Source: Escherichia phage vB_EcoD_Over9000. Taken from it: a stretch of 44,583 nt of DNA. Location: the sequence record NC_073079.1; one strand, 5' to 3'. This document shows, piece by piece, positions 2,023 through 40,256 of the stretch. The notes beneath the pieces were generated by a model, which searched no databases, had not been told where the DNA came from, and was given only the letters and a program-made list of their open reading frames with translations. Positions within the stretch are counted from its first letter, which is position 1; each line of letters starts with the position of its first letter. The position numbers and the translations under genes were made by a program.

Positions 2023-3543
2023 ATGACCGTTAACGTTGATAACCAGCACCCACTTTATGCGCGCATCGCGCCAGAGTGGAAGATGATCCGCGATTGTGTA
2101 GCAGGGGAGCGCGCCGTGAAGGCGTGCGGCCCCTTGTACCTGCCTCATCCCGCCAGTGGCGACAATACGGACCCGAAAGCACGGGCGCGGTATAAGGCGT
2201 ACAAGCAACGCGCTGTATTCCTGAACGCCACCGCCCGCACACTTAACGCGCTGTTAGGCGTTGCCTTTGCTAAACCGGTAAGTCTGGACCTTTCCGGGGC
2301 GATGGCGGACCTGATTGACGACGTAGACGGTAGCGGTATGCCGCTACCGCAACTCCTGCGCGGTGCTATGTCTGAAGTTCTGCAATCAGGCCGTGCGGGC
2401 TTTATGGTCGACTACGACCGCCAGGCGCATTTTGATGAACTTGGTAATGTAGTGCCGCAGACAGCCGCCGAGATGGCGTCACACCGCCCGCTTATCCGCC
2501 TGTACACGGCAGAACAGATCATCAACTGGCGGCAGACCCACGGCGTCGATACGCTGATTGTGCTGAAGGAAACGGACGAAATCAGCACCGAAGACCCGGA
2601 CGATTTCGCAAACCACGAAGTAACAATCTGGACCGAGCTTCGCATGATTAACGGTGCGGCACACGCCCGCCGCTGGTTTTACAACGCTGACACGTCCGAA
2701 GTGCAAATGGACTTGCCGCGTGGATTCACCCGCACCGACCTTGTTCCGCTGGTGGATGCTGCCGGTCGTGCGCTTACTCAACTTCCGTTTTGCTGGTGTG
2801 GCGCGGTGGACAACAACGCAACGCCTGACGCCGCTCCGCTGGCGGATATCGCATCCATCAACATTAAGCACTACAACGCCGAAGCGGACGTCGCCGAGAT
2901 TGCGCACATTGTGGGCCAGCCGACCCTTGTTGCTACGGGCCTGACTCAATCATGGGCAGACAAAAACCTGAAGGGTGGCATTGCTCTCGGCGCGACTAAG
3001 GGCGTTATCCTGGGCCAGAACATGGACGCTAAACTTATTCAGGCCGAGGAGCGCAACTTGTCTGTCGCTCTTTGTGAGCGCCGCGAATTGCAAATGGCTA
3101 AACTGGGCGCGGCCCTGGTCGAGAAGGGGACCGCACCTAAGACGGCAACCGAGGCGGCCTATGATGCACAGACTGATAACAGTATCCTGTCACTGATTGC
3201 CGGTAACGTCGAGAAGGCTTTCAACCGTGCGCTGCAAATCGTCAAGCTGTTCACGGGCGACACCGCAGATCAACGCGTAACGCTGAATAAGTTCTACACC
3301 GAAATCACGGTTGACGCACAGCTTATGACCGCAATGATGGCGGGTGTGCAGACCGGTACGGTCCGTCTGGCGGACTTTATCAAGTGGATGATGGCCCAGG
3401 GCGTTATTGATGACTCGCAAACCGTCGAGCAGGTGGAAGACGAACTGCGAAATCAGAACCCATTGCCTCAAATGTCCCCGGATGCGGTAGAATCTACCGA
3501 AGAAGACCAGGGCAAGGTAGCGGACGATGGCGAGAACAATTAA
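2023..3543 (+). CDS. portal protein
   Basis: 506 aa ORF between terminase and head-morphogenesis gene; RBS AAGGAAA upstream; acidic C-terminus; size and position typical of portal. Confidence 0.75.
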   Translation: MTVNVDNQHPLYARIAPEWKMIRDCVAGERAVKACGPLYLPHPASGDNTDPKARARYKAYKQRAVFLNATARTLNALLGVAFAKPVSLDLSGAMADLIDDVDGSGMPLPQLLRGAMSEVLQSGRAGFMVDYDRQAHFDELGNVVPQTAAEMASHRPLIRLYTAEQIINWRQTHGVDTLIVLKETDEISTEDPDDFANHEVTIWTELRMINGAAHARRWFYNADTSEVQMDLPRGFTRTDLVPLVDAAGRALTQLPFCWCGAVDNNATPDAAPLADIASINIKHYNAEADVAEIAHIVGQPTLVATGLTQSWADKNLKGGIALGATKGVILGQNMDAKLIQAEERNLSVALCERRELQMAKLGAALVEKGTAPKTATEAAYDAQTDNSILSLIAGNVEKAFNRALQIVKLFTGDTADQRVTLNKFYTEITVDAQLMTAMMAGVQTGTVRLADFIKWMMAQGVIDDSQTVEQVEDELRNQNPLPQMSPDAVESTEEDQGKVADDGENN

Positions 3544-22286: not shown

Positions 22287-22366
22287 GGTATCATCTCCTG
22301 TATTTGGTCGAGTTTTAGTATCGCACCGCTCGACCAGGATTGCAACCAATTTAAGAGGATTCAGCT

Positions 22367-35719: not shown

Positions 35720-35971
35720 TTATTTTGTCTCCCAGCGGTCAATTGTTCTTGCTTCGGATGCAACTGCGAAGCGAACATATTCCAGATTGGAATCCGCCCA
35801 AATATAAAAATCGGGGTTAGTAAAGGTGGTGCGCTTAATTTGCGCGGGGGTGTTGCGGCGTTTATCTATTACGGCAACTCGCGACTGAAAGCTGCCGATG
35901 CGTTCGAACAGCCAATAGTACGGGCGCTGGTCGCGGGAGTCCACCGCCTCGATTAGCGTGAAGCGTGCCAT
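35720..35971 (-). CDS. small hypothetical protein
   Basis: 83 aa ORF; start 10 bp downstream (in transcript direction) of terminator 35982-36011. Confidence 0.4.
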   Translation of the reverse strand: MARFTLIEAVDSRDQRPYYWLFERIGSFQSRVAVIDKRRNTPAQIKRTTFTNPDFYIWADSNLEYVRFAVASEARTIDRWETK

Positions 35972-35981
35972 TGTCTCGTCC

Positions 35982-36011
35982 TCTAAAAAGAGGCCCGCTA
36001 ATCTGCGGGCC
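35982..36011 (-). terminator. intrinsic terminator (reverse strand) after the acidic-protein gene
   Basis: GGCCCGC-AGATTA-GCGGGCC hairpin on the reverse strand followed by CTTTTTAG. Confidence 0.6.
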
Positions 36012-36019
36012 GGAATATA

Positions 36020-36535
36020 TTAATCTTCCAGTTCGAAATAGGTTTCGACGATTTCTTTTAGCTCTTTGTGGAAGTCTTCGACGTCGTCATCTTCCAGCTT
36101 GGCGATTGATTTGATCTCGAACGATTCCAGCAGGTCGTCGAATTCGTCGTTCGCATCGTCGTCATCGCCACCGGCGATAATCGCGGCATACTGTTTGATT
36201 TCGTCGCGCATCTCTGCCAGCGGGTCGGCATCTTTCTTACCTTTGCCTTTCGCCGGTGCTTTCTTAGACTTAGCCGGTTTTTCGTCTTCGGCATCGTCGT
36301 CGTCATCTTCTACGACTTCTTTTTTAGCCTTACCTTTCGCCGGGGCTTTTTTAGATTTAGCCGGTTTTTCGTCTTCGGCGTCATCGTCGTCATCTTCGAC
36401 AACTTCTTTTTTGGCCTTAGACGGCTTCTTGTCTTCCTGTTTACCAACGGCAGCGCCAACGGTTTCATAATGCTTTGCAATGGTTTCCAGTGCTACTACG
36501 CCGCGAGTGATCAGGTTTACGATTTGCTCAAACAT
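36020..36535 (-). CDS. highly acidic protein with tandem repeats (DNA-mimic / anti-restriction candidate)
   Basis: 171 aa from ATG 36535 (RBS GGAG); two 28-aa repeats KKEVVEDDDDDAEDEKPAKSKKAPAKGK; acidic C-terminus; own terminator 35982-36011; first gene of the reverse block. Confidence 0.55.
   Translation of the reverse strand: MFEQIVNLITRGVVALETIAKHYETVGAAVGKQEDKKPSKAKKEVVEDDDDDAEDEKPAKSKKAPAKGKAKKEVVEDDDDDAEDEKPAKSKKAPAKGKGKKDADPLAEMRDEIKQYAAIIAGGDDDDANDEFDDLLESFEIKSIAKLEDDDVEDFHKELKEIVETYFELED
36248..36415. repeat. 84-bp tandem repeat (2 copies) within the acidic-protein gene
   Basis: Near-identical units ...CTTTCGCCGG(T/G)GCTTT(C/T)TTAGA(C/T)TTAGCCGGTTTTTCGTCTTCGGC(A/G)TC(G/A)TCGTCGTCATCTTC... 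Confidence 0.7.
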
Positions 36536-36771
36536 GGTATATCTCCGATTGGTTAAGTTTAGGTGTCGGCAGTTAACTTCGTCGGTGGCCTTAACATATT
36601 GCCAGGTTACGCGTTCTCCCGTTCGGGTAGTGGACCTGGTTATATAATCACGGTTGGGAATCCTGACACTTCGATCCGGCCCCTGCGTTGCCCCTCTCCA
36701 GTTTGCGTCCTGCATCCTGTCGACGGGGTGAATATTAGATTGGTTGCATGTGGGGTGTCAACAACTAATTT

Positions 36772-36807
36772 CAAAAAAAAAGCGCCGAGGCAAAATGCGG
36801 CGGCGCT
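36772..36807 (-). terminator. orphan intrinsic terminator (reverse strand) in the early intergenic region
   Basis: GC-rich hairpin (36781-36807) followed on the reverse strand by nine T (A-run 36773-36781 on +); no reverse-strand ORF upstream of it. Confidence 0.5.
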
Positions 36808-36877
36808 AACCAATAAGAGACAATGAGACGGGAATTATTATTACACGCGTGCGCGCCCGTTTCAATATCCAAAGAAT

Positions 36878-36906
36878 TTGACACCGTGCAGTTTTGGGTG
36901 TAGTTT
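36878..36906 (+). promoter_or_regulatory. sigma70-like promoter upstream of HTH regulator gene
   Basis: Perfect -35 TTGACA (36878-36883), 17-bp spacer, weak -10 TAGTTT (36901-36906). Confidence 0.4.
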
Positions 36907-36937
36907 CGTTGGTCATTAACCAGCTGAGGGCAGAGCA

Positions 36938-37267
36938 ATGAATGTAAACGACGCAATCGAAATGTTAACGAAGACTGTTTGCAGTGAGACAAGCCGGTCA
37001 TGGGCATACACCGATGCCGTGGGGGCTGTGTTATTTGAAATCGAACGACTGCGGCTTACCGAAAAAGAATTGCGCGCCAGGCTGGAACTACTCAACGGTA
37101 CAGCAGCAAGCAAGCTGCAAAAACACAATGAAGAAATGGAAGAATACAAAAAGCAGGTTATCCGTTTGCGCGCCGAGGGTAAATCATGGGCGATGATTGC
37201 CGAGTTGACCGGAATTAATCAGAGCACAGTGCGCTCCTGGGTACGCAATAATAAAACTTCTAAGTAA
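36938..37267 (+). CDS. helix-turn-helix DNA-binding protein (putative transcriptional regulator)
   Basis: 109 aa; C-terminal GKSWAMIAELTGINQSTVRSWVRN is an HTH; promoter-like TTGACA-17-TAGTTT at 36878-36906; RBS GAGGG. Confidence 0.6.
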   Translation: MNVNDAIEMLTKTVCSETSRSWAYTDAVGAVLFEIERLRLTEKELRARLELLNGTAASKLQKHNEEMEEYKKQVIRLRAEGKSWAMIAELTGINQSTVRSWVRNNKTSK

Positions 37268-37277
37268 GGCCACGGCA

Positions 37278-39515
37278 ATGAGCTTGATTAAATTCGCTGT
37301 AACAAAACCCGCTAAAAAAGGCGAAAAAGCCAGGGCGGAAAACTTCCAGATGACGACCGATGAGTTTTTCGAATTTATCAAAGATGCGAAAGAAATCTCC
37401 TCGGTGCATATCAACAAGACGGAAGATAAAGCCGAGTACGCGCGCCGCAAGCGTAAGGCCGATGGCATCGTGGCGTATACCAGTGACGGATTGCGTCGTA
37501 AGACCAGTGCGGTGGACCGCTCGATCCTGTTCTTCGATATCGACCGTACCGACACCCGCACCTTACGCCGCTGCCGTAAGGCGTTCATCGACGCGGGACT
37601 GGAGCACGTCTTCCACACCACCACCGGCGACCGCCACCCGCTGAAGGGCGGCACGCGTTGCGCCCGTTTCCTGGTGCTCACTGACAAGCCTGTACCGGCT
37701 GAAGACCTGGGCCGCGTCCAGTATGCACTATTACACCAACTGGGTCTGTCAGATGTGGCCTTCGACGATTGCACGAAAGACACAAACCGCCTGATGTACC
37801 TGCCACACCAGCAGTCTGTTATTAAGTGCCACTACGGCAAGCGTGCCCGCGTCCGTCGTCTGCTTCGCCTGGCGGATAAGTTGGGCGTGGAGAAGGAGGA
37901 AGTACGCCGCGAGCTTACCCAGGGCGACGACGCAGTGGCAGACGGCATTCTGGACTGGTGCTTCCAGGCAGGATTCGAGGAGTTATCCTCCGGTCGCGGT
38001 TATGAAGTGCCGTGCCCGAACGAACATCTGCACAGCGGCGAAGGGTCGACGGCTATCATGGTCAAGGATGGCGAGATCCGTTTCAAGTGTATGCACACCG
38101 GCAACGAGTGTTGCTCGGAACTGAACAGACACCAGCACCTAGCACTACGTCTTATCGGAATCCCGGACCACCTGAACGTCGAACCGCACAACATGTCACG
38201 TAAGCAAATCGCCGCCATCCTGCCAGGTCTGGACGACGAGGAAGTGGAATCGTGCTATGCGCATATAGTTGATGCGGTCGGTGACGGCGACGAGTACGGC
38301 GTATGTACCGACGCGGACCTGGATAACGAACCGGTCGCACTGTTCAGTAAGCACGACCCGATAATCGAGGGGTTGATTAACTTTAAATCGACCTGGTACA
38401 TGGCTGGCGAGTCGAACATCGGTAAATCGTTCTACGTGCTTGGCCAAATGGGCGCGGTTGCCGCAGGTATTCCGTTCGGCGGTGCGAAGGTCGTCCAGTC
38501 GCATTGCTTCTATTTCGATGCGGAAGGTGGCGAAGCCTCCAACCAGCGTAAGGAAGCATTGCAGATCAAATATGAGCACGATCTCGACAAGCTGCACATT
38601 ATCGACCTGCAATCTCGCGGCTGGGATATCACCAGCAAATCCGGCTTGCGTGAAGTTATCAGCTTCATCAACCGCACCGCTAACGGCGAACCGGTTGGCC
38701 TGGTGGCGTTCGACTCACTCAACCAGACTGTTGCGCTGCGGTCCGCCGATGCAAAACCGTTCGACGAGAACAACGCCAGCGATATGGGTGAAGTGGTCAA
38801 AGCGCTGAAGGCCATTGCGGAAAATACAGGCGGCAGTGCGGGCGTCATCCACCACCCGGCTAAAGGTGCAAACGGCAGCAGATCCCCCCGCGGGTCCGGC
38901 GCGCTGCATGGTGCTGTCGATTCTGCGTTCTTCCTGGAGCAGCCTGACGACAACCAGCCAGGACAACTGAACCTGTATCACGAAAAGGCGCGTAATGGCA
39001 TCAAGCAAGCGCCGCGCGGCTTCGTCCTGCTCAAGTGCAAGGTTAAGGTTGATCTCCGCAAGTCCGAGGCGTTCGAAGCCCACCAGTCCACCAGCACTGG
39101 TCCTGACTTCGGCGATGTGGTTGCCGGTTGGGACGTAAAGCCAATCGCATCCACGCCACGCGACGAGACTCTTTACCTCGTACCGGTCGCCCTGGCGCCG
39201 TTCGCTATCGAACAGGCAAAGGCCGCTGGCAAAGCAGCAGTTAAGGAAGAGAACGCCGCAGGCCCGCGCAACGAAAAAGAGAAAGTGCTTTATGCGGCAC
39301 TGGAAAAACTGATGGAAGATAACCCGGACCATACCGGATTCAGTAAATCGGCAATTGTCCGCCAGGCGGGACTGGCGAAAGGTGGCACCTCGACGAAGGC
39401 AATCGACGATATGGTCGAGCGCGGAGTGTTAGGTTTTTATACCGATCCGCGCACCGGGGCCATCTATGGGTCGTCGAATATCGTCATCAAAACGAATATA
39501 CCCATCACGCTTTAA
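37278..39515 (+). CDS. DNA primase / replicative helicase (AAA_25 / DnaB-RepA-like ATPase with N-terminal primase-like domain)
   Basis: 745 aa; Walker A GESNIGKS and Walker B LVAFDSL in C-terminal half; Cys/His cluster CPNEHLH...CMHTGNECC in N-terminal half; followed by an ori-like repeat region. Confidence 0.75.
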   Translation: MSLIKFAVTKPAKKGEKARAENFQMTTDEFFEFIKDAKEISSVHINKTEDKAEYARRKRKADGIVAYTSDGLRRKTSAVDRSILFFDIDRTDTRTLRRCRKAFIDAGLEHVFHTTTGDRHPLKGGTRCARFLVLTDKPVPAEDLGRVQYALLHQLGLSDVAFDDCTKDTNRLMYLPHQQSVIKCHYGKRARVRRLLRLADKLGVEKEEVRRELTQGDDAVADGILDWCFQAGFEELSSGRGYEVPCPNEHLHSGEGSTAIMVKDGEIRFKCMHTGNECCSELNRHQHLALRLIGIPDHLNVEPHNMSRKQIAAILPGLDDEEVESCYAHIVDAVGDGDEYGVCTDADLDNEPVALFSKHDPIIEGLINFKSTWYMAGESNIGKSFYVLGQMGAVAAGIPFGGAKVVQSHCFYFDAEGGEASNQRKEALQIKYEHDLDKLHIIDLQSRGWDITSKSGLREVISFINRTANGEPVGLVAFDSLNQTVALRSADAKPFDENNASDMGEVVKALKAIAENTGGSAGVIHHPAKGANGSRSPRGSGALHGAVDSAFFLEQPDDNQPGQLNLYHEKARNGIKQAPRGFVLLKCKVKVDLRKSEAFEAHQSTSTGPDFGDVVAGWDVKPIASTPRDETLYLVPVALAPFAIEQAKAAGKAAVKEENAAGPRNEKEKVLYAALEKLMEDNPDHTGFSKSAIVRQAGLAKGGTSTKAIDDMVERGVLGFYTDPRTGAIYGSSNIVIKTNIPITL

Positions 39516-39534
39516 CGGCGACCGATGACGACCT

Positions 39535-39654
39535 GAAAGATTAAATTTTGCGCGCATTGGTTGCCGATATGGGAATCCCCATATCGCTAAAAGATTAAAT
39601 TTTGCGCGCATTGGTTGCCATTTTGAGTGTTTTTAGTCGGTCGCATTGGTTGCC
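39535..39654. repeat. direct repeats with intervening inverted repeat (ori-like region downstream of primase/helicase)
   Basis: 31-bp direct repeat (G/A)AAAGATTAAATTTTGCGCGCATTGGTTGCC at 39535-39565 and 39589-39619, partial third copy CGCATTGGTTGCC at 39642-39654; hairpin GATATGGG-AATC-CCCATATC between; AT-rich stretch follows. Confidence 0.7.
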
Positions 39655-39689
39655 GTGTAGTGTAAATATAATGAATAGTTATGCAGTTT

Positions 39690-39870
39690 TATTGCATAAA
39701 GTAAGCGGGACAAAAAGCGGGACAAACTTAGGGCGGGACAAAGCGGGACAGCACCCCCGTCCCGCCCCGGATGACGCGGCTTCCAGAGGAGCGGGACAGC
39801 GGGACAGCACCCCAGTCTTTCAGACTAGACGGGGGTCAGTGGCCCCCCTCGTCTGAGACTGAATAAAATC
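39690..39870. repeat. iteron cluster (GCGGGACA boxes) plus conserved hairpin element, copy B
   Basis: About 190 bp roughly 85-90 percent identical (by eye) to 11975-12145, including the same ~50-bp hairpin element with only loop changes (TCAACGG vs TCAGTGG). Confidence 0.8.
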
Positions 39871-40021
39871 CGGGATTGCAAAATACACGGCAGCATGACG
39901 CGAAGTGCGGTCGCGGATGAACTAGGCAACCAATGCGAGTTACATTATGCTGAGTGAAAAATGCGGTTTGCAGTCACAGCTGATAGCGATCAACTTTTTC
40001 ATGCGCGTGATTAATATTGGT

Positions 40022-40050
40022 TGCATCCAGCCGGGCACCCTGCTATATTG
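40022..40050 (+). promoter_or_regulatory. sigma70-like promoter upstream of gene 40078
   Basis: TTGCAT (40022-40027), 17-bp spacer, TATATT (40045-40050); followed by palindromic element TTGGTTGCACACCAA and RBS AGGAGGG. Confidence 0.5.
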
Positions 40051-40077
40051 GTTGCACACCAACAGGAGGGCGGAACA

Positions 40078-40256
40078 TGAAAACCGAAATGGTTAATAAG
40101 CGCGAAATCAAGATCGGCGATACGGTAGTACACAACGGGGAGCTTCGCACTGTGTGCAAGCGAGCGTTTAGCATCGATGAATTTATGGGCCTGCTACTTT
40201 GGGGCGACAGCTATCGTTTAGGGCATAAACTGGTTGAGAGGGTTACGGAACTATGA
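40078..40256 (+). CDS. small hypothetical protein
   Basis: 59 aa from ATG 40078 with strong RBS AGGAGGG and a sigma70-like promoter (40022-40050). Confidence 0.5.

Follow-up and report, generated by a model that had tools for sequence, protein, structure and literature searches.

A predicted small RNA and a structured leader RNA in the early control region of Dhillonvirus phages

The 400-bp gap at positions 36536 to 36937 of Escherichia phage vB_EcoD_Over9000 (NC_073079.1; the window, 44,583 nt, is the complete genome of this Dhillonvirus, an HK578-like virulent siphophage of E. coli) separates two divergent early gene blocks and appears to be an early control region, in which three sigma-70 promoters are combined with two non-coding RNA elements. 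One of them is a predicted small RNA of ~57 nt, whose exposed 5' part is complementary to the start regions of genes on both sides of the gap, and the other is a structured leader RNA of ~160 nt at the predicted 5' end of the leftward early mRNA. To this explanation as a whole, the best of those considered, a probability of about 0.5 is given. All results were obtained in silico, and the comparison spans ~190 phage records; related loci carry codes (L001-L024 and so on; L002 is McMelon, L003 GeorgBuechner, L022 Ioannina, L023 CHD5UKE2, and L025 Salmonella phage St162), and the leftward and rightward early genes are named L1-L3 and R1-R2. The segment 36400-37100 is 94-99% identical to ~125 GenBank Dhillonvirus phages. 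Nineteen related loci were aligned first, and 27 distinct versions of the small-RNA region were gathered afterwards; across the aligned loci 36718-36925 hardly varies, also in those whose flanking proteins are down to 76% identity. Promoter and terminator scanning gave three promoter-like sites (2.2 +/- 1.6 expected) and four terminator-like sites (3.5 +/- 1.6 expected), and an 81-nt fold had a z of -1.3. Consensus matching is therefore not above chance, and the case rests on comparison with relatives and on compensatory changes.

The small-RNA unit begins with P(-)1 (36837..36865, reverse strand), which reads TTGAAA-17-(TGt)AATAAT and agrees with the consensus at 10 of 12 positions, with a TG before the -10 hexamer. 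It stands back to back with the rightward promoter P(+) and is kept in 26 distinct Dhillonvirus versions; in the L018 lineage TTGCGC-17-TATTAT occupies the same place. The predicted transcript (36773..36830, reverse strand) has the form 5'-(C)GUCUCAUUGUCUCUUAUUGGUUA-hairpin-U9, its 5' end being placed from the position of the -10 hexamer, and it folds into an unpaired 5' part and a single hairpin (-15.2 kcal/mol). The unpaired part, the 23-nt seed (36807..36829, reverse strand; GUCUCAUUGUCUCUUAUUGGUUA), contains two GUCUC anti-Shine-Dalgarno repeats, a CAUUG anti-start-codon core, and UUGGUUA. The intrinsic terminator (36773..36806, reverse strand) consists of a hairpin at 36806..36782 and nine T at 36781..36773. 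An earlier sequence-only reading had pointed to the promoter-like sequence and to the GC-rich hairpin with its nine T, both of which are present, and had regarded the terminator as an orphan that might belong to a short reverse-strand RNA of about 55-60 nt or to a regulatory attenuator. Its observations are partly confirmed, since the features it listed exist with small coordinate errors, and its interpretation is partly supported: the short RNA is the alternative best backed by comparison, and the attenuator is the less likely one. The terminator most likely is not an orphan and ends a conserved small RNA, a reading that is still a prediction.

Conservation of the unit is uneven in an informative way. 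Across the 26 Dhillonvirus versions, the 23-nt body shows one base change, a U deleted in the lineage of L016 and Ioannina; variable instead are the 5-7 nt between the -10 hexamer and the body, the internal loop of the terminator, and the length of its U run (8-13), the last two being the only terminator variation in the main group. The terminator stem has changed in a compensatory manner, from GCGCCG/CGGCGC to UCCCCG/CGGGGA in L016 and Ioannina and to CCCCAG/CUGGGG in L018. In L018, whose primase is 68% identical, the layout recurs as a reverse promoter, an RNA of ~70 nt, a hairpin, and 13 U, and its small RNA shares only the CUCAUUGUCU seed with the window. This lineage is represented by one IMG/VR contig, because no L018-like phages were found in GenBank. 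An exact IMG/VR search for the terminator hairpin of the window gave no matches, which is explained by a private C of the window at one internal-loop position. Rfam 15 returned no family at gathering score in the whole window, and at E<=10 over 36770-36866 it gave weak terminator-shaped matches only, the best being ncS54 (17.9 bits against a threshold of 43). The unit has what is expected of small RNAs of the Hfq type, i.e., its own promoter, a Rho-independent terminator with a U tail of >=6-7, and, as judged in silico, a conserved single-stranded seed complementary to start regions; the long U tail makes help from Hfq probable. It is likely, on this comparative evidence, that a terminated short reverse-strand transcript is made.

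The 5' part of the small RNA is the reverse complement of a start-region-like sequence, and its predicted targets lie in both early operons. At the L1 translation start region (36533..36558, reverse strand; UUAACCAAUCGGAGAUAUACCAUG), an inverted repeat joins 36542-36555 to 36807-36820 with 86% complementarity between L1 start and seed, and the duplex of -16.6 kcal/mol is reached by 1 of 300 shuffles. The R1 translation start region (36915..36943, forward strand; UUAACCAGCUGAGGGCAGAGCAAUGAAU) gives a duplex of -17.8 to -21.9 kcal/mol. The R2 start codon site (37273..37281, forward strand; GGCAAUGAG) would form nine consecutive pairs, one of them G-U, with the small-RNA CUCAUUGUC, and the L2 start codon site (35969..35977, reverse strand; GAGACAAUG), kept in nearly all Dhillonviruses examined, is a perfect 9-mer complement of the small-RNA CAUUGUCUC. 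Among 61 predicted start regions R1 ranks third (-17.8 kcal/mol) and L1 about sixth (-16.6), for which the chance is ~0.008 by our own arithmetic. The five nearest genes (R1, R2, L1, L2, and L3), a set picked after the ranking was seen, all fall in the top nine, with a mean of -16.8 kcal/mol vs. -10.3 for the rest, a gap that none of 300 composition-preserving seed shuffles reaches. The relatives provide lineage-specific matches. The R2 start of Ioannina (GAGACAAUGAGA) is a perfect 12-mer match to the small RNA (0/300 shuffles), and that of L018 (GACAAUGAGCAA) matches perfectly the L018-specific 5' end UUGCUCAUUGUC (a 12-mer; -28.7 kcal/mol; 0/300 shuffles). The ACUCCU of the L018 small RNA pairs with the Shine-Dalgarno AGGAGU of its own L1 (1/300 shuffles), and the non-homologous first rightward gene of CHD5UKE2 likewise begins with GACAAUGAG. 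As a candidate for a general start-codon motif, GAGACAATGAG was rejected: allowing <=2 mismatches genome-wide, 14 occurrences were found where 9 are expected.

It is proposed that P(-)1, firing back to back with P(+), would yield an RNA of ~57 nt that stops at the terminator and pairs with the start regions of L1, L2, and L3 on the left and of R1 and the primase-helicase gene R2 on the right. The sequences themselves show anatomy, conservation, covariation, and complementarity, whereas transcription, pairing in vivo, and any effect on translation, stability, or termination are deduced from them. In the favored form of the proposal, the accumulating small RNA would lower translation of its targets and so act on early and replication genes as a feedback or a timer. 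The chance that the small RNA is a translational repressor pairing with early start regions is judged to be about even.

The second element, the leader RNA (36565..36724, reverse strand, delimited by covariance-model alignment), came to light in a search with the intergenic region alone, in which 36577-36713 matched otherwise unrelated phages at 74-94% identity. The sequence-only reading had called the gap structured, and so it is, but this, its main structured element, went unseen there. The leader is closed by helix P1 (36724..36717 with 36572..36565) and comprises the P2 hairpin with GGA in its loop (36714..36704), helix P4 (~36694..36690 with 36589..36584), the P3 hairpin (36683..36656), and the P5a-P5b-P6 arm (36645..36596), all on the reverse strand. 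Pairs were counted in a covariance-model alignment that comprised 37 distinct sequences, taken from GenBank, IMG/VR, and metagenomes, and that is itself fitted to the model; in it 87.5% of the cells are paired (33-47% in controls with slid partners), 19 pairs have changed on both sides (2-6 in the controls), and the covariation score is 0.349 (0.03-0.07 in the controls). None of 500 shuffles reaches these pairing values. Helices P3-P6 are 93-100% paired, and the low values of P1 and P2 are wholly due to Dhillonvirus rows that are misaligned. Every lineage has a P1, with a different sequence in each (e.g., GUCGaCAG/CUGcCGAC, GGGCGgCG/CGaCGCCC, GACGGGC/GCCCGUC, and GGGaGGCG/CGCCaCCC). RNAalifold gave the same helices and two short extensions. 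Three G-U pairs in P3, one of them in 37 of 37 sequences, would be C-A if read on the other strand; the leader RNA sense is therefore the reverse strand of the window, the same as that of L1. Rfam gave no matches over the leader, also at E<=10, and none for the L030 version. Judged by its covariation and distribution, the leader is a well-supported structured RNA family, absent from Rfam, previously undescribed, and horizontally shared.

Some candidate features within the leader were considered and set aside. The TATAAT hexamer that had been placed at 36634 is actually found at 36643-36648; it has no -35 partner, lies within helix P5a, and is GGCCGAAC or GGCCAGAA in other lineages, so it was not retained as a promoter. 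Of the GGA motifs regarded as CsrA sites, only that of the P2 loop fits, the second one lying inside the covarying helix P3. A pseudoknot of the P3 loop (AGUGU) with ACACU is not favored, because a G-to-A change in MQ-4 keeps P3 and would break the pseudoknot.

The leader is found in Dhillonvirus, in Drexlerviridae (Warwickvirus, Hanrivervirus, KMI8, and Motto), in Murrayvirus, in Sortsnevirus, and in unclassified siphophages. There is one copy per genome, ahead of unrelated genes, always co-oriented with its neighbors and lying in a gap of ~230-260 nt (~710 nt in Alux-21). No extra or diverged copy was found by nhmmer or the covariance model, either within the window or around the primase genes of distantly related phages, and the leader is absent from 5,426 complete E. 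coli genomes and 72,556 plasmids (chromosomes, prophages, and plasmids); its sole match in bacterial genome contigs is a phage-sized contig of 42.7 kb in a metagenome-assembled genome (MAG). In eight Dhillonvirus loci (L007, L009, L010, L016, L018, and L022-L024) a 14-nt hairpin takes the place of the leader (~157 nt).

In most lineages, 6-10 nt separate the end of a -10-like hexamer from P1, and the leader is therefore placed as the 5'-terminal domain of its transcript. In the window this hexamer belongs to P(-)2 (36732..36761, reverse strand; TTGACA-18-TAATAT, 10 of 12 consensus positions in the promoter scan), the conserved promoter that serves the leftward early operon; this promoter lies downstream of the small-RNA terminator, and its -10 ends 6-7 nt ahead of the first leader helix. 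After the leader come a variable linker, mostly C/A-rich and in the window unstructured, and the ribosome-binding site of unrelated genes (L1 in the window). No riboswitch platform was found: the linker of 14-40 nt from P1 to the Shine-Dalgarno sequence differs in sequence and length by lineage. It is proposed that P(-)2 would start the leftward mRNA near 36726, and that its first ~160 nt would fold as a multi-helix domain within a few nucleotides of the 5' end. A base-paired 5' end protects E. coli mRNAs against 5'-end-dependent decay, and the leader may be a cis-acting 5'-terminal module that shields the mRNA end, recruits a conserved host component, and is exchanged horizontally as a unit. 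That it has a conserved specific partner is argued because ~70 positions, including junction nucleotides, are invariant across phage families. A bolder combined proposal is that the leader is a new functional RNA class, binding a conserved enterobacterial machine or small molecule or acting as a catalyst, that unrelated families of virulent coliphages pass on horizontally as a cassette of promoter and leader, and that the adjacent small RNA throttles the phage's own primase-helicase and early genes; as a joint claim it is doubtful. Examples of such a leader class would be an RNA-polymerase-modifying, ribosome-recruiting, nuclease-blocking, or anti-defense RNA.

Several points weigh against the explanation by a small RNA and a leader. 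A whole-genome duplex scan gives ~20 sites elsewhere that pair with the small RNA equally well or better, and single targets in the window are reached by 1-20 of 300 shuffles; duplex energy alone is not decisive, because other sites of the genome surpass the flanking start regions, good as these are, and the five-gene comparison suffers from the choice of its set. The scan did not call the small-RNA promoter of L018, a weak one by consensus. The shared UAACCAAU..GAGA could be a DNA-level site, the related ATTGGTTGC occurring 13 times in both orientations. Literature searches for Dhillonvirus transcriptomics and for the sequences themselves found nothing. As for the leader, the lineages share no terminator or anti-Shine-Dalgarno helix after the domain, some Dhillonviruses do without it, and the terminator that follows L1 (36011..35992, reverse strand) is equally present in the eight Dhillonvirus loci lacking the leader.

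The first alternative to the small-RNA reading is that transcription alone matters. P(-)1 would then be the divergent partner of P(+), acting by supercoiling coupling or polymerase competition, the RNA itself would be functionless, and the terminator would just keep the transcript from running over P(-)2. The arrangement is favorable to this idea, as the two promoters are back to back with their -35 boxes 12 bp apart (overlapping in L018), an alternating purine-pyrimidine tract is conserved in the promoter spacer and one is found in L018 too, and a terminator just ahead of P(-)2 would stop promoter occlusion. However, a functionless transcript should drift, and the 23-nt body is essentially invariant where adjacent positions vary; the seed also outlasts divergence in L018 and matches lineage-specific targets. 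This alternative is considered unlikely. The tract (GCGCGCACGCGTGT, 36843-36856, in the P(-)1 spacer; TGCGCGCGTATA, ~2346-2357, in L018) could adopt Z-DNA under negative supercoiling.

The second alternative treats the conserved block as a set of DNA operators (UAACCAAU/ATTGGTT-type, at 36548, 36739, 36808, and 36915) for a phage regulator, e.g., R1, or a host factor, and the complementarity between small RNA and start regions as a by-product of operator repeats in both orientations. Here the counts are suggestive: ATTGGTT occurs 17 times where 5.3 are expected and ATTGGTTGC 13 times where 0.52 are expected, in both orientations and in intergenic positions; one copy sits in the P(-)2 spacer, an inverted repeat covers the P(+) start, and R1 has an HTH_23 / sigma-70 region 4-like domain. 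Against this, the form found in the small RNA and at the L1 start is ATTGGTTA and not the genome-wide ATTGGTTGC, the complementarity runs on into Shine-Dalgarno sequences and start codons (GAGACAAUG, GGCAAUGAG) that do not resemble operator repeats, and the conserved promoter and covarying terminator are left unexplained. This operator reading is improbable.

A promoter-proximal attenuator, in which P(-)1 transcripts stop until an antiterminator allows read-through, as in the lambda PR'-6S RNA-tR' and Q system, would have the promoter, the short transcript, the strong terminator, and the operon in the layout seen in lambda, with a structured leader immediately downstream. However, the conserved P(-)2 stands between terminator and operon and can drive the leftward genes alone, so read-through is not needed and an attenuator is less likely; moreover, the fold contains no antiterminator pairing that competes with the hairpin, and no Q- or N-like protein occurs among the neighboring genes scanned. 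The attenuator is very unlikely.

A role in replication, with the short transcript as an origin primer or activator RNA beside the primase-helicase gene, could be suggested by the cumulative GC skew minimum at 36-37 kb, by the adjacency of replication genes, and by Kagunavirus-type relatives, which also have a reverse promoter-terminator unit just upstream of the primase-helicase gene. The skew minimum is uninformative, because it coincides with the switch in gene orientation, the gap has no iterons and no AT-rich unwinding element, and a better candidate for an origin exists in the repeat-dense non-coding stretch at 39516-40080, which makes this role a highly improbable one. That region, ~560 nt long and directly after the primase-helicase gene, contains (CGC)ATTGGTTGCC three times in direct and once in inverted orientation, a 33-nt repeat in two copies, AGCGGGAC approximately six times, and ATATTGGTTGCA twice; a replication origin or regulatory hub is plausible there.

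That the locus encodes a small protein, either the 36-aa reverse open reading frame (ORF) 36916..36806, annotated as a coding sequence in GeorgBuechner, McMelon, and CHD5UKE2, or a 26-aa forward ORF from the ATG at 36824 with the start-region-like UAACCAAUAAGAGACAAUG, is hardly credible, since neither frame is conserved among relatives: the former has a premature stop in L014 and L008, its middle out of frame in L006, L012, and L013, and is broken in L016 and Ioannina, for which reason it is not considered a gene, and the latter occurs in two different frames of 19-27 aa (4 aa in GeorgBuechner), no conserved forward-strand ORF overlapping 36773-36830. The 36-aa frame stops one base ahead of the hairpin, contrary to the earlier statement that no reverse-strand ORF feeds the terminator.

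The predicted small RNA can be compared with several known systems. The lambda oop RNA, an antisense RNA of 77 nt encoded beside replication genes, has a constitutive-type promoter and an intrinsic terminator of its own, and acts in cis as antisense to cII, whose 3' end it overlaps. The likeness lies in a short terminated RNA with its own promoter, transcribed away from replication genes at the border of regulatory and replication functions. The predicted RNA differs in that it overlaps no opposite gene or mRNA, as a cis-antisense RNA would, there being no oppositely oriented gene or conserved ORF over it and the forward-strand P(+) lying downstream of it, and in that its predicted targets are 100-900 bp off on both sides; it has no sequence similarity to oop and no Rfam match. 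A unit resembling oop in its antisense arrangement, and placed exactly where oop is, occurs within the same module in the Kagunavirus-type relatives (primase-helicase 43-46% identical): a reverse promoter lies just upstream of the primase-helicase start codon, and ~75-110 nt beyond it comes a hairpin with 8-10 T. The unit is found in St162 (L025, 2340-2500), where the promoter is TTGACT-18-TATACT, and in L090, L091, L092, L095, L098, L104, and L106 at ~3370-3500.

The c4 RNA of P1/P7, the CI RNA of P4, and the sar RNA of P22 are short phage RNAs that pair with ribosome-binding regions of nearby phage genes; their phages are temperate and their role is in immunity, c4 and CI being processed from longer transcripts and sar being cis-encoded. 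The exposed sequence of the predicted small RNA would pair with such regions in the same manner, whereas its phage is virulent, it has its own promoter and terminator, and its predicted targets lie in both divergent early operons. With the Hfq-type RNAs of phages and prophages (DicF; lambda PreS/LPR1, LPR2, and PR' 6S; StxS) it shares an unstructured 5' seed, an A/U-rich stretch, a Rho-independent terminator, and a long U tail. The known examples come from temperate phages and have mostly host targets, whereas here the best-supported predicted targets are the phage's own early genes. RIL-seq in lambda found the short PR' 6S transcript and PreS bound to Hfq with targets (bioRxiv 10.1101/2024.10.31.621285). 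By analogy, the small RNA would be closest in action to the Hfq-type and c4/CI/sar RNAs, and in position to lambda oop.

For the leader, put RNAs, 5' stabilizer hairpins, and PeSL cassettes serve as analogies only. Like the put RNA of HK022, it is located directly behind an early promoter, in an operon with an internal terminator, the one after L1; put consists of two simple stem-loops of ~70 nt, whereas the leader is a multi-branch domain of ~160 nt. The position would fit a put-like RNA. Leader presence shows no correlation with the terminator, and a need for antitermination is not indicated, because leader-less Dhillonviruses keep the same internal terminator. As in stabilizers of the ompA type, only a few nucleotides lie between the predicted 5' end and P1, which is what protection against 5'-end-dependent decay is known to require; one hairpin would do for protection, whereas the leader has ~70 invariant positions. 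The T4 PeSL is likewise a promoter-associated structured element before varied genes, from which the leader differs in being single-copy and not a dispersed repeat.

The third promoter, P(+) (36878..36906, forward strand; TTGACA-17-TAGTTT), is that predicted for the rightward early operon, with a start near 36913. Its perfect -35, already picked out in the sequence-only reading, lies at 36878-36883, and its -10 matches the consensus at three of six positions. It is kept in all relatives carrying R1, as TTGACA-17-TAGTAT in HK578-type phages and TTGCAC-17-TATATT in L018. The HK578 GenBank record annotates the same three promoter sites, by consensus only. The inverted repeat TTGGT-N4-ACCA (36909..36922), which in most relatives is TTGGT-N5-ACCAA, lies over the predicted rightward start; it is a possible operator, and R1, a small HTH protein, adjoins it. 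A possible weak forward-strand promoter, TTGCAT-16-TAATTT (36744-36771), overlaps P(-)2, and its transcript, if active, would be antisense to the whole small RNA. The motif ATTGGTTGCA, given earlier at 36741, starts at 36739 (36739-36748, in the P(-)2 spacer) and is not a dedicated promoter element but a genome-wide motif with 13 copies. Sites of ATTGGTTGC, mostly intergenic, are at 22342, 27062, 27079, 30021, 33902, 36739, 39556, 39610, 39645, 39926, 40016, 40047, and 40777; several copies supply TTGCAx as a -35-like hexamer, with a -10-like one 16-17 nt further on, and a function of the motif as a regulator site or as part of promoters is possible.

The reverse-strand block reads, in leftward order, L1, terminator, L2 (83 aa), L3, a DUF2800/PD-(D/E)XK nuclease gene, and more replication genes; rightward lie R1, a small HTH protein of 109 aa, and R2, a primase-helicase of 745 aa. 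ARAGORN found no tRNA or tmRNA genes in the window. L1 (171 aa) begins with MFEQ at 36535 on the reverse strand, with the Shine-Dalgarno sequence GGAG upstream. The profile of PHROG family 3127 spans its residues 1-171, and the 231-aa frame of some GenBank records is therefore unsupported; the 60-codon in-frame extension through the leader lies outside the profile and is absent from phages without the leader. L1 is acidic, without a Pfam match, varies from 138 to 172 aa among relatives, and has an internal tandem repeat (DDDDDAEDEKPAKSKKAPAKGK.KK, twice; 36066-36470), where the record of phage welsh marks a repeat_region. GenBank records draw the L1 gene upstream through the leader in McMelon, GeorgBuechner, Ioannina, and CHD5UKE2, in Ioannina also across the small-RNA locus, and the same records call genes of 36-50 aa over the small-RNA promoter; these extensions and small genes are probably mis-annotations. 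The hairpin of the L1-L2 terminator (GGCCCGC-loop-GCGGGCC, 35992-36011, and the same site in L001-L024) carries its loop in the mirror forms CAGATTAG and CTAATCTG, and has been inverted repeatedly among close relatives. Near-identical Dhillonvirus sequences are filed as Campylobacter phage A144, Acinetobacter phage NJ01, and Sodalis phage SO-1; likewise, a Drexlerviridae genome with the leader goes by the name of Pseudomonas phage Motto, and the phage-sized contig is part of a Cereibacter MAG. The host labels of those deposits look doubtful.

The analysis corrects the annotation of the region, in which L1 has been drawn through the leader and a 36-aa gene has been called over the small-RNA promoter in several GenBank records. 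The leader is common to at least four phage groups, and its presence or absence in near-identical Dhillonviruses offers isogenic-like comparisons on E. coli K-12; GeorgBuechner (Bas16), for instance, has the leader, and rolling and Haito_Bas83 lack it. Dhillonvirus phages are widely used in therapy and in research on defense systems, among them the BASEL phages (GeorgBuechner, TheodorHerzl, KarlBarth, and others) and SECphi4/18. To our knowledge, regulation in virulent E. coli siphophages has been credited almost wholly to proteins and promoters, and base-pairing RNAs are known chiefly from temperate phages. If the proposal is true, a conserved small RNA directed at gene starts in both early operons, among them that of the replication gene, would bring RNA into the timing of early expression in these phages.

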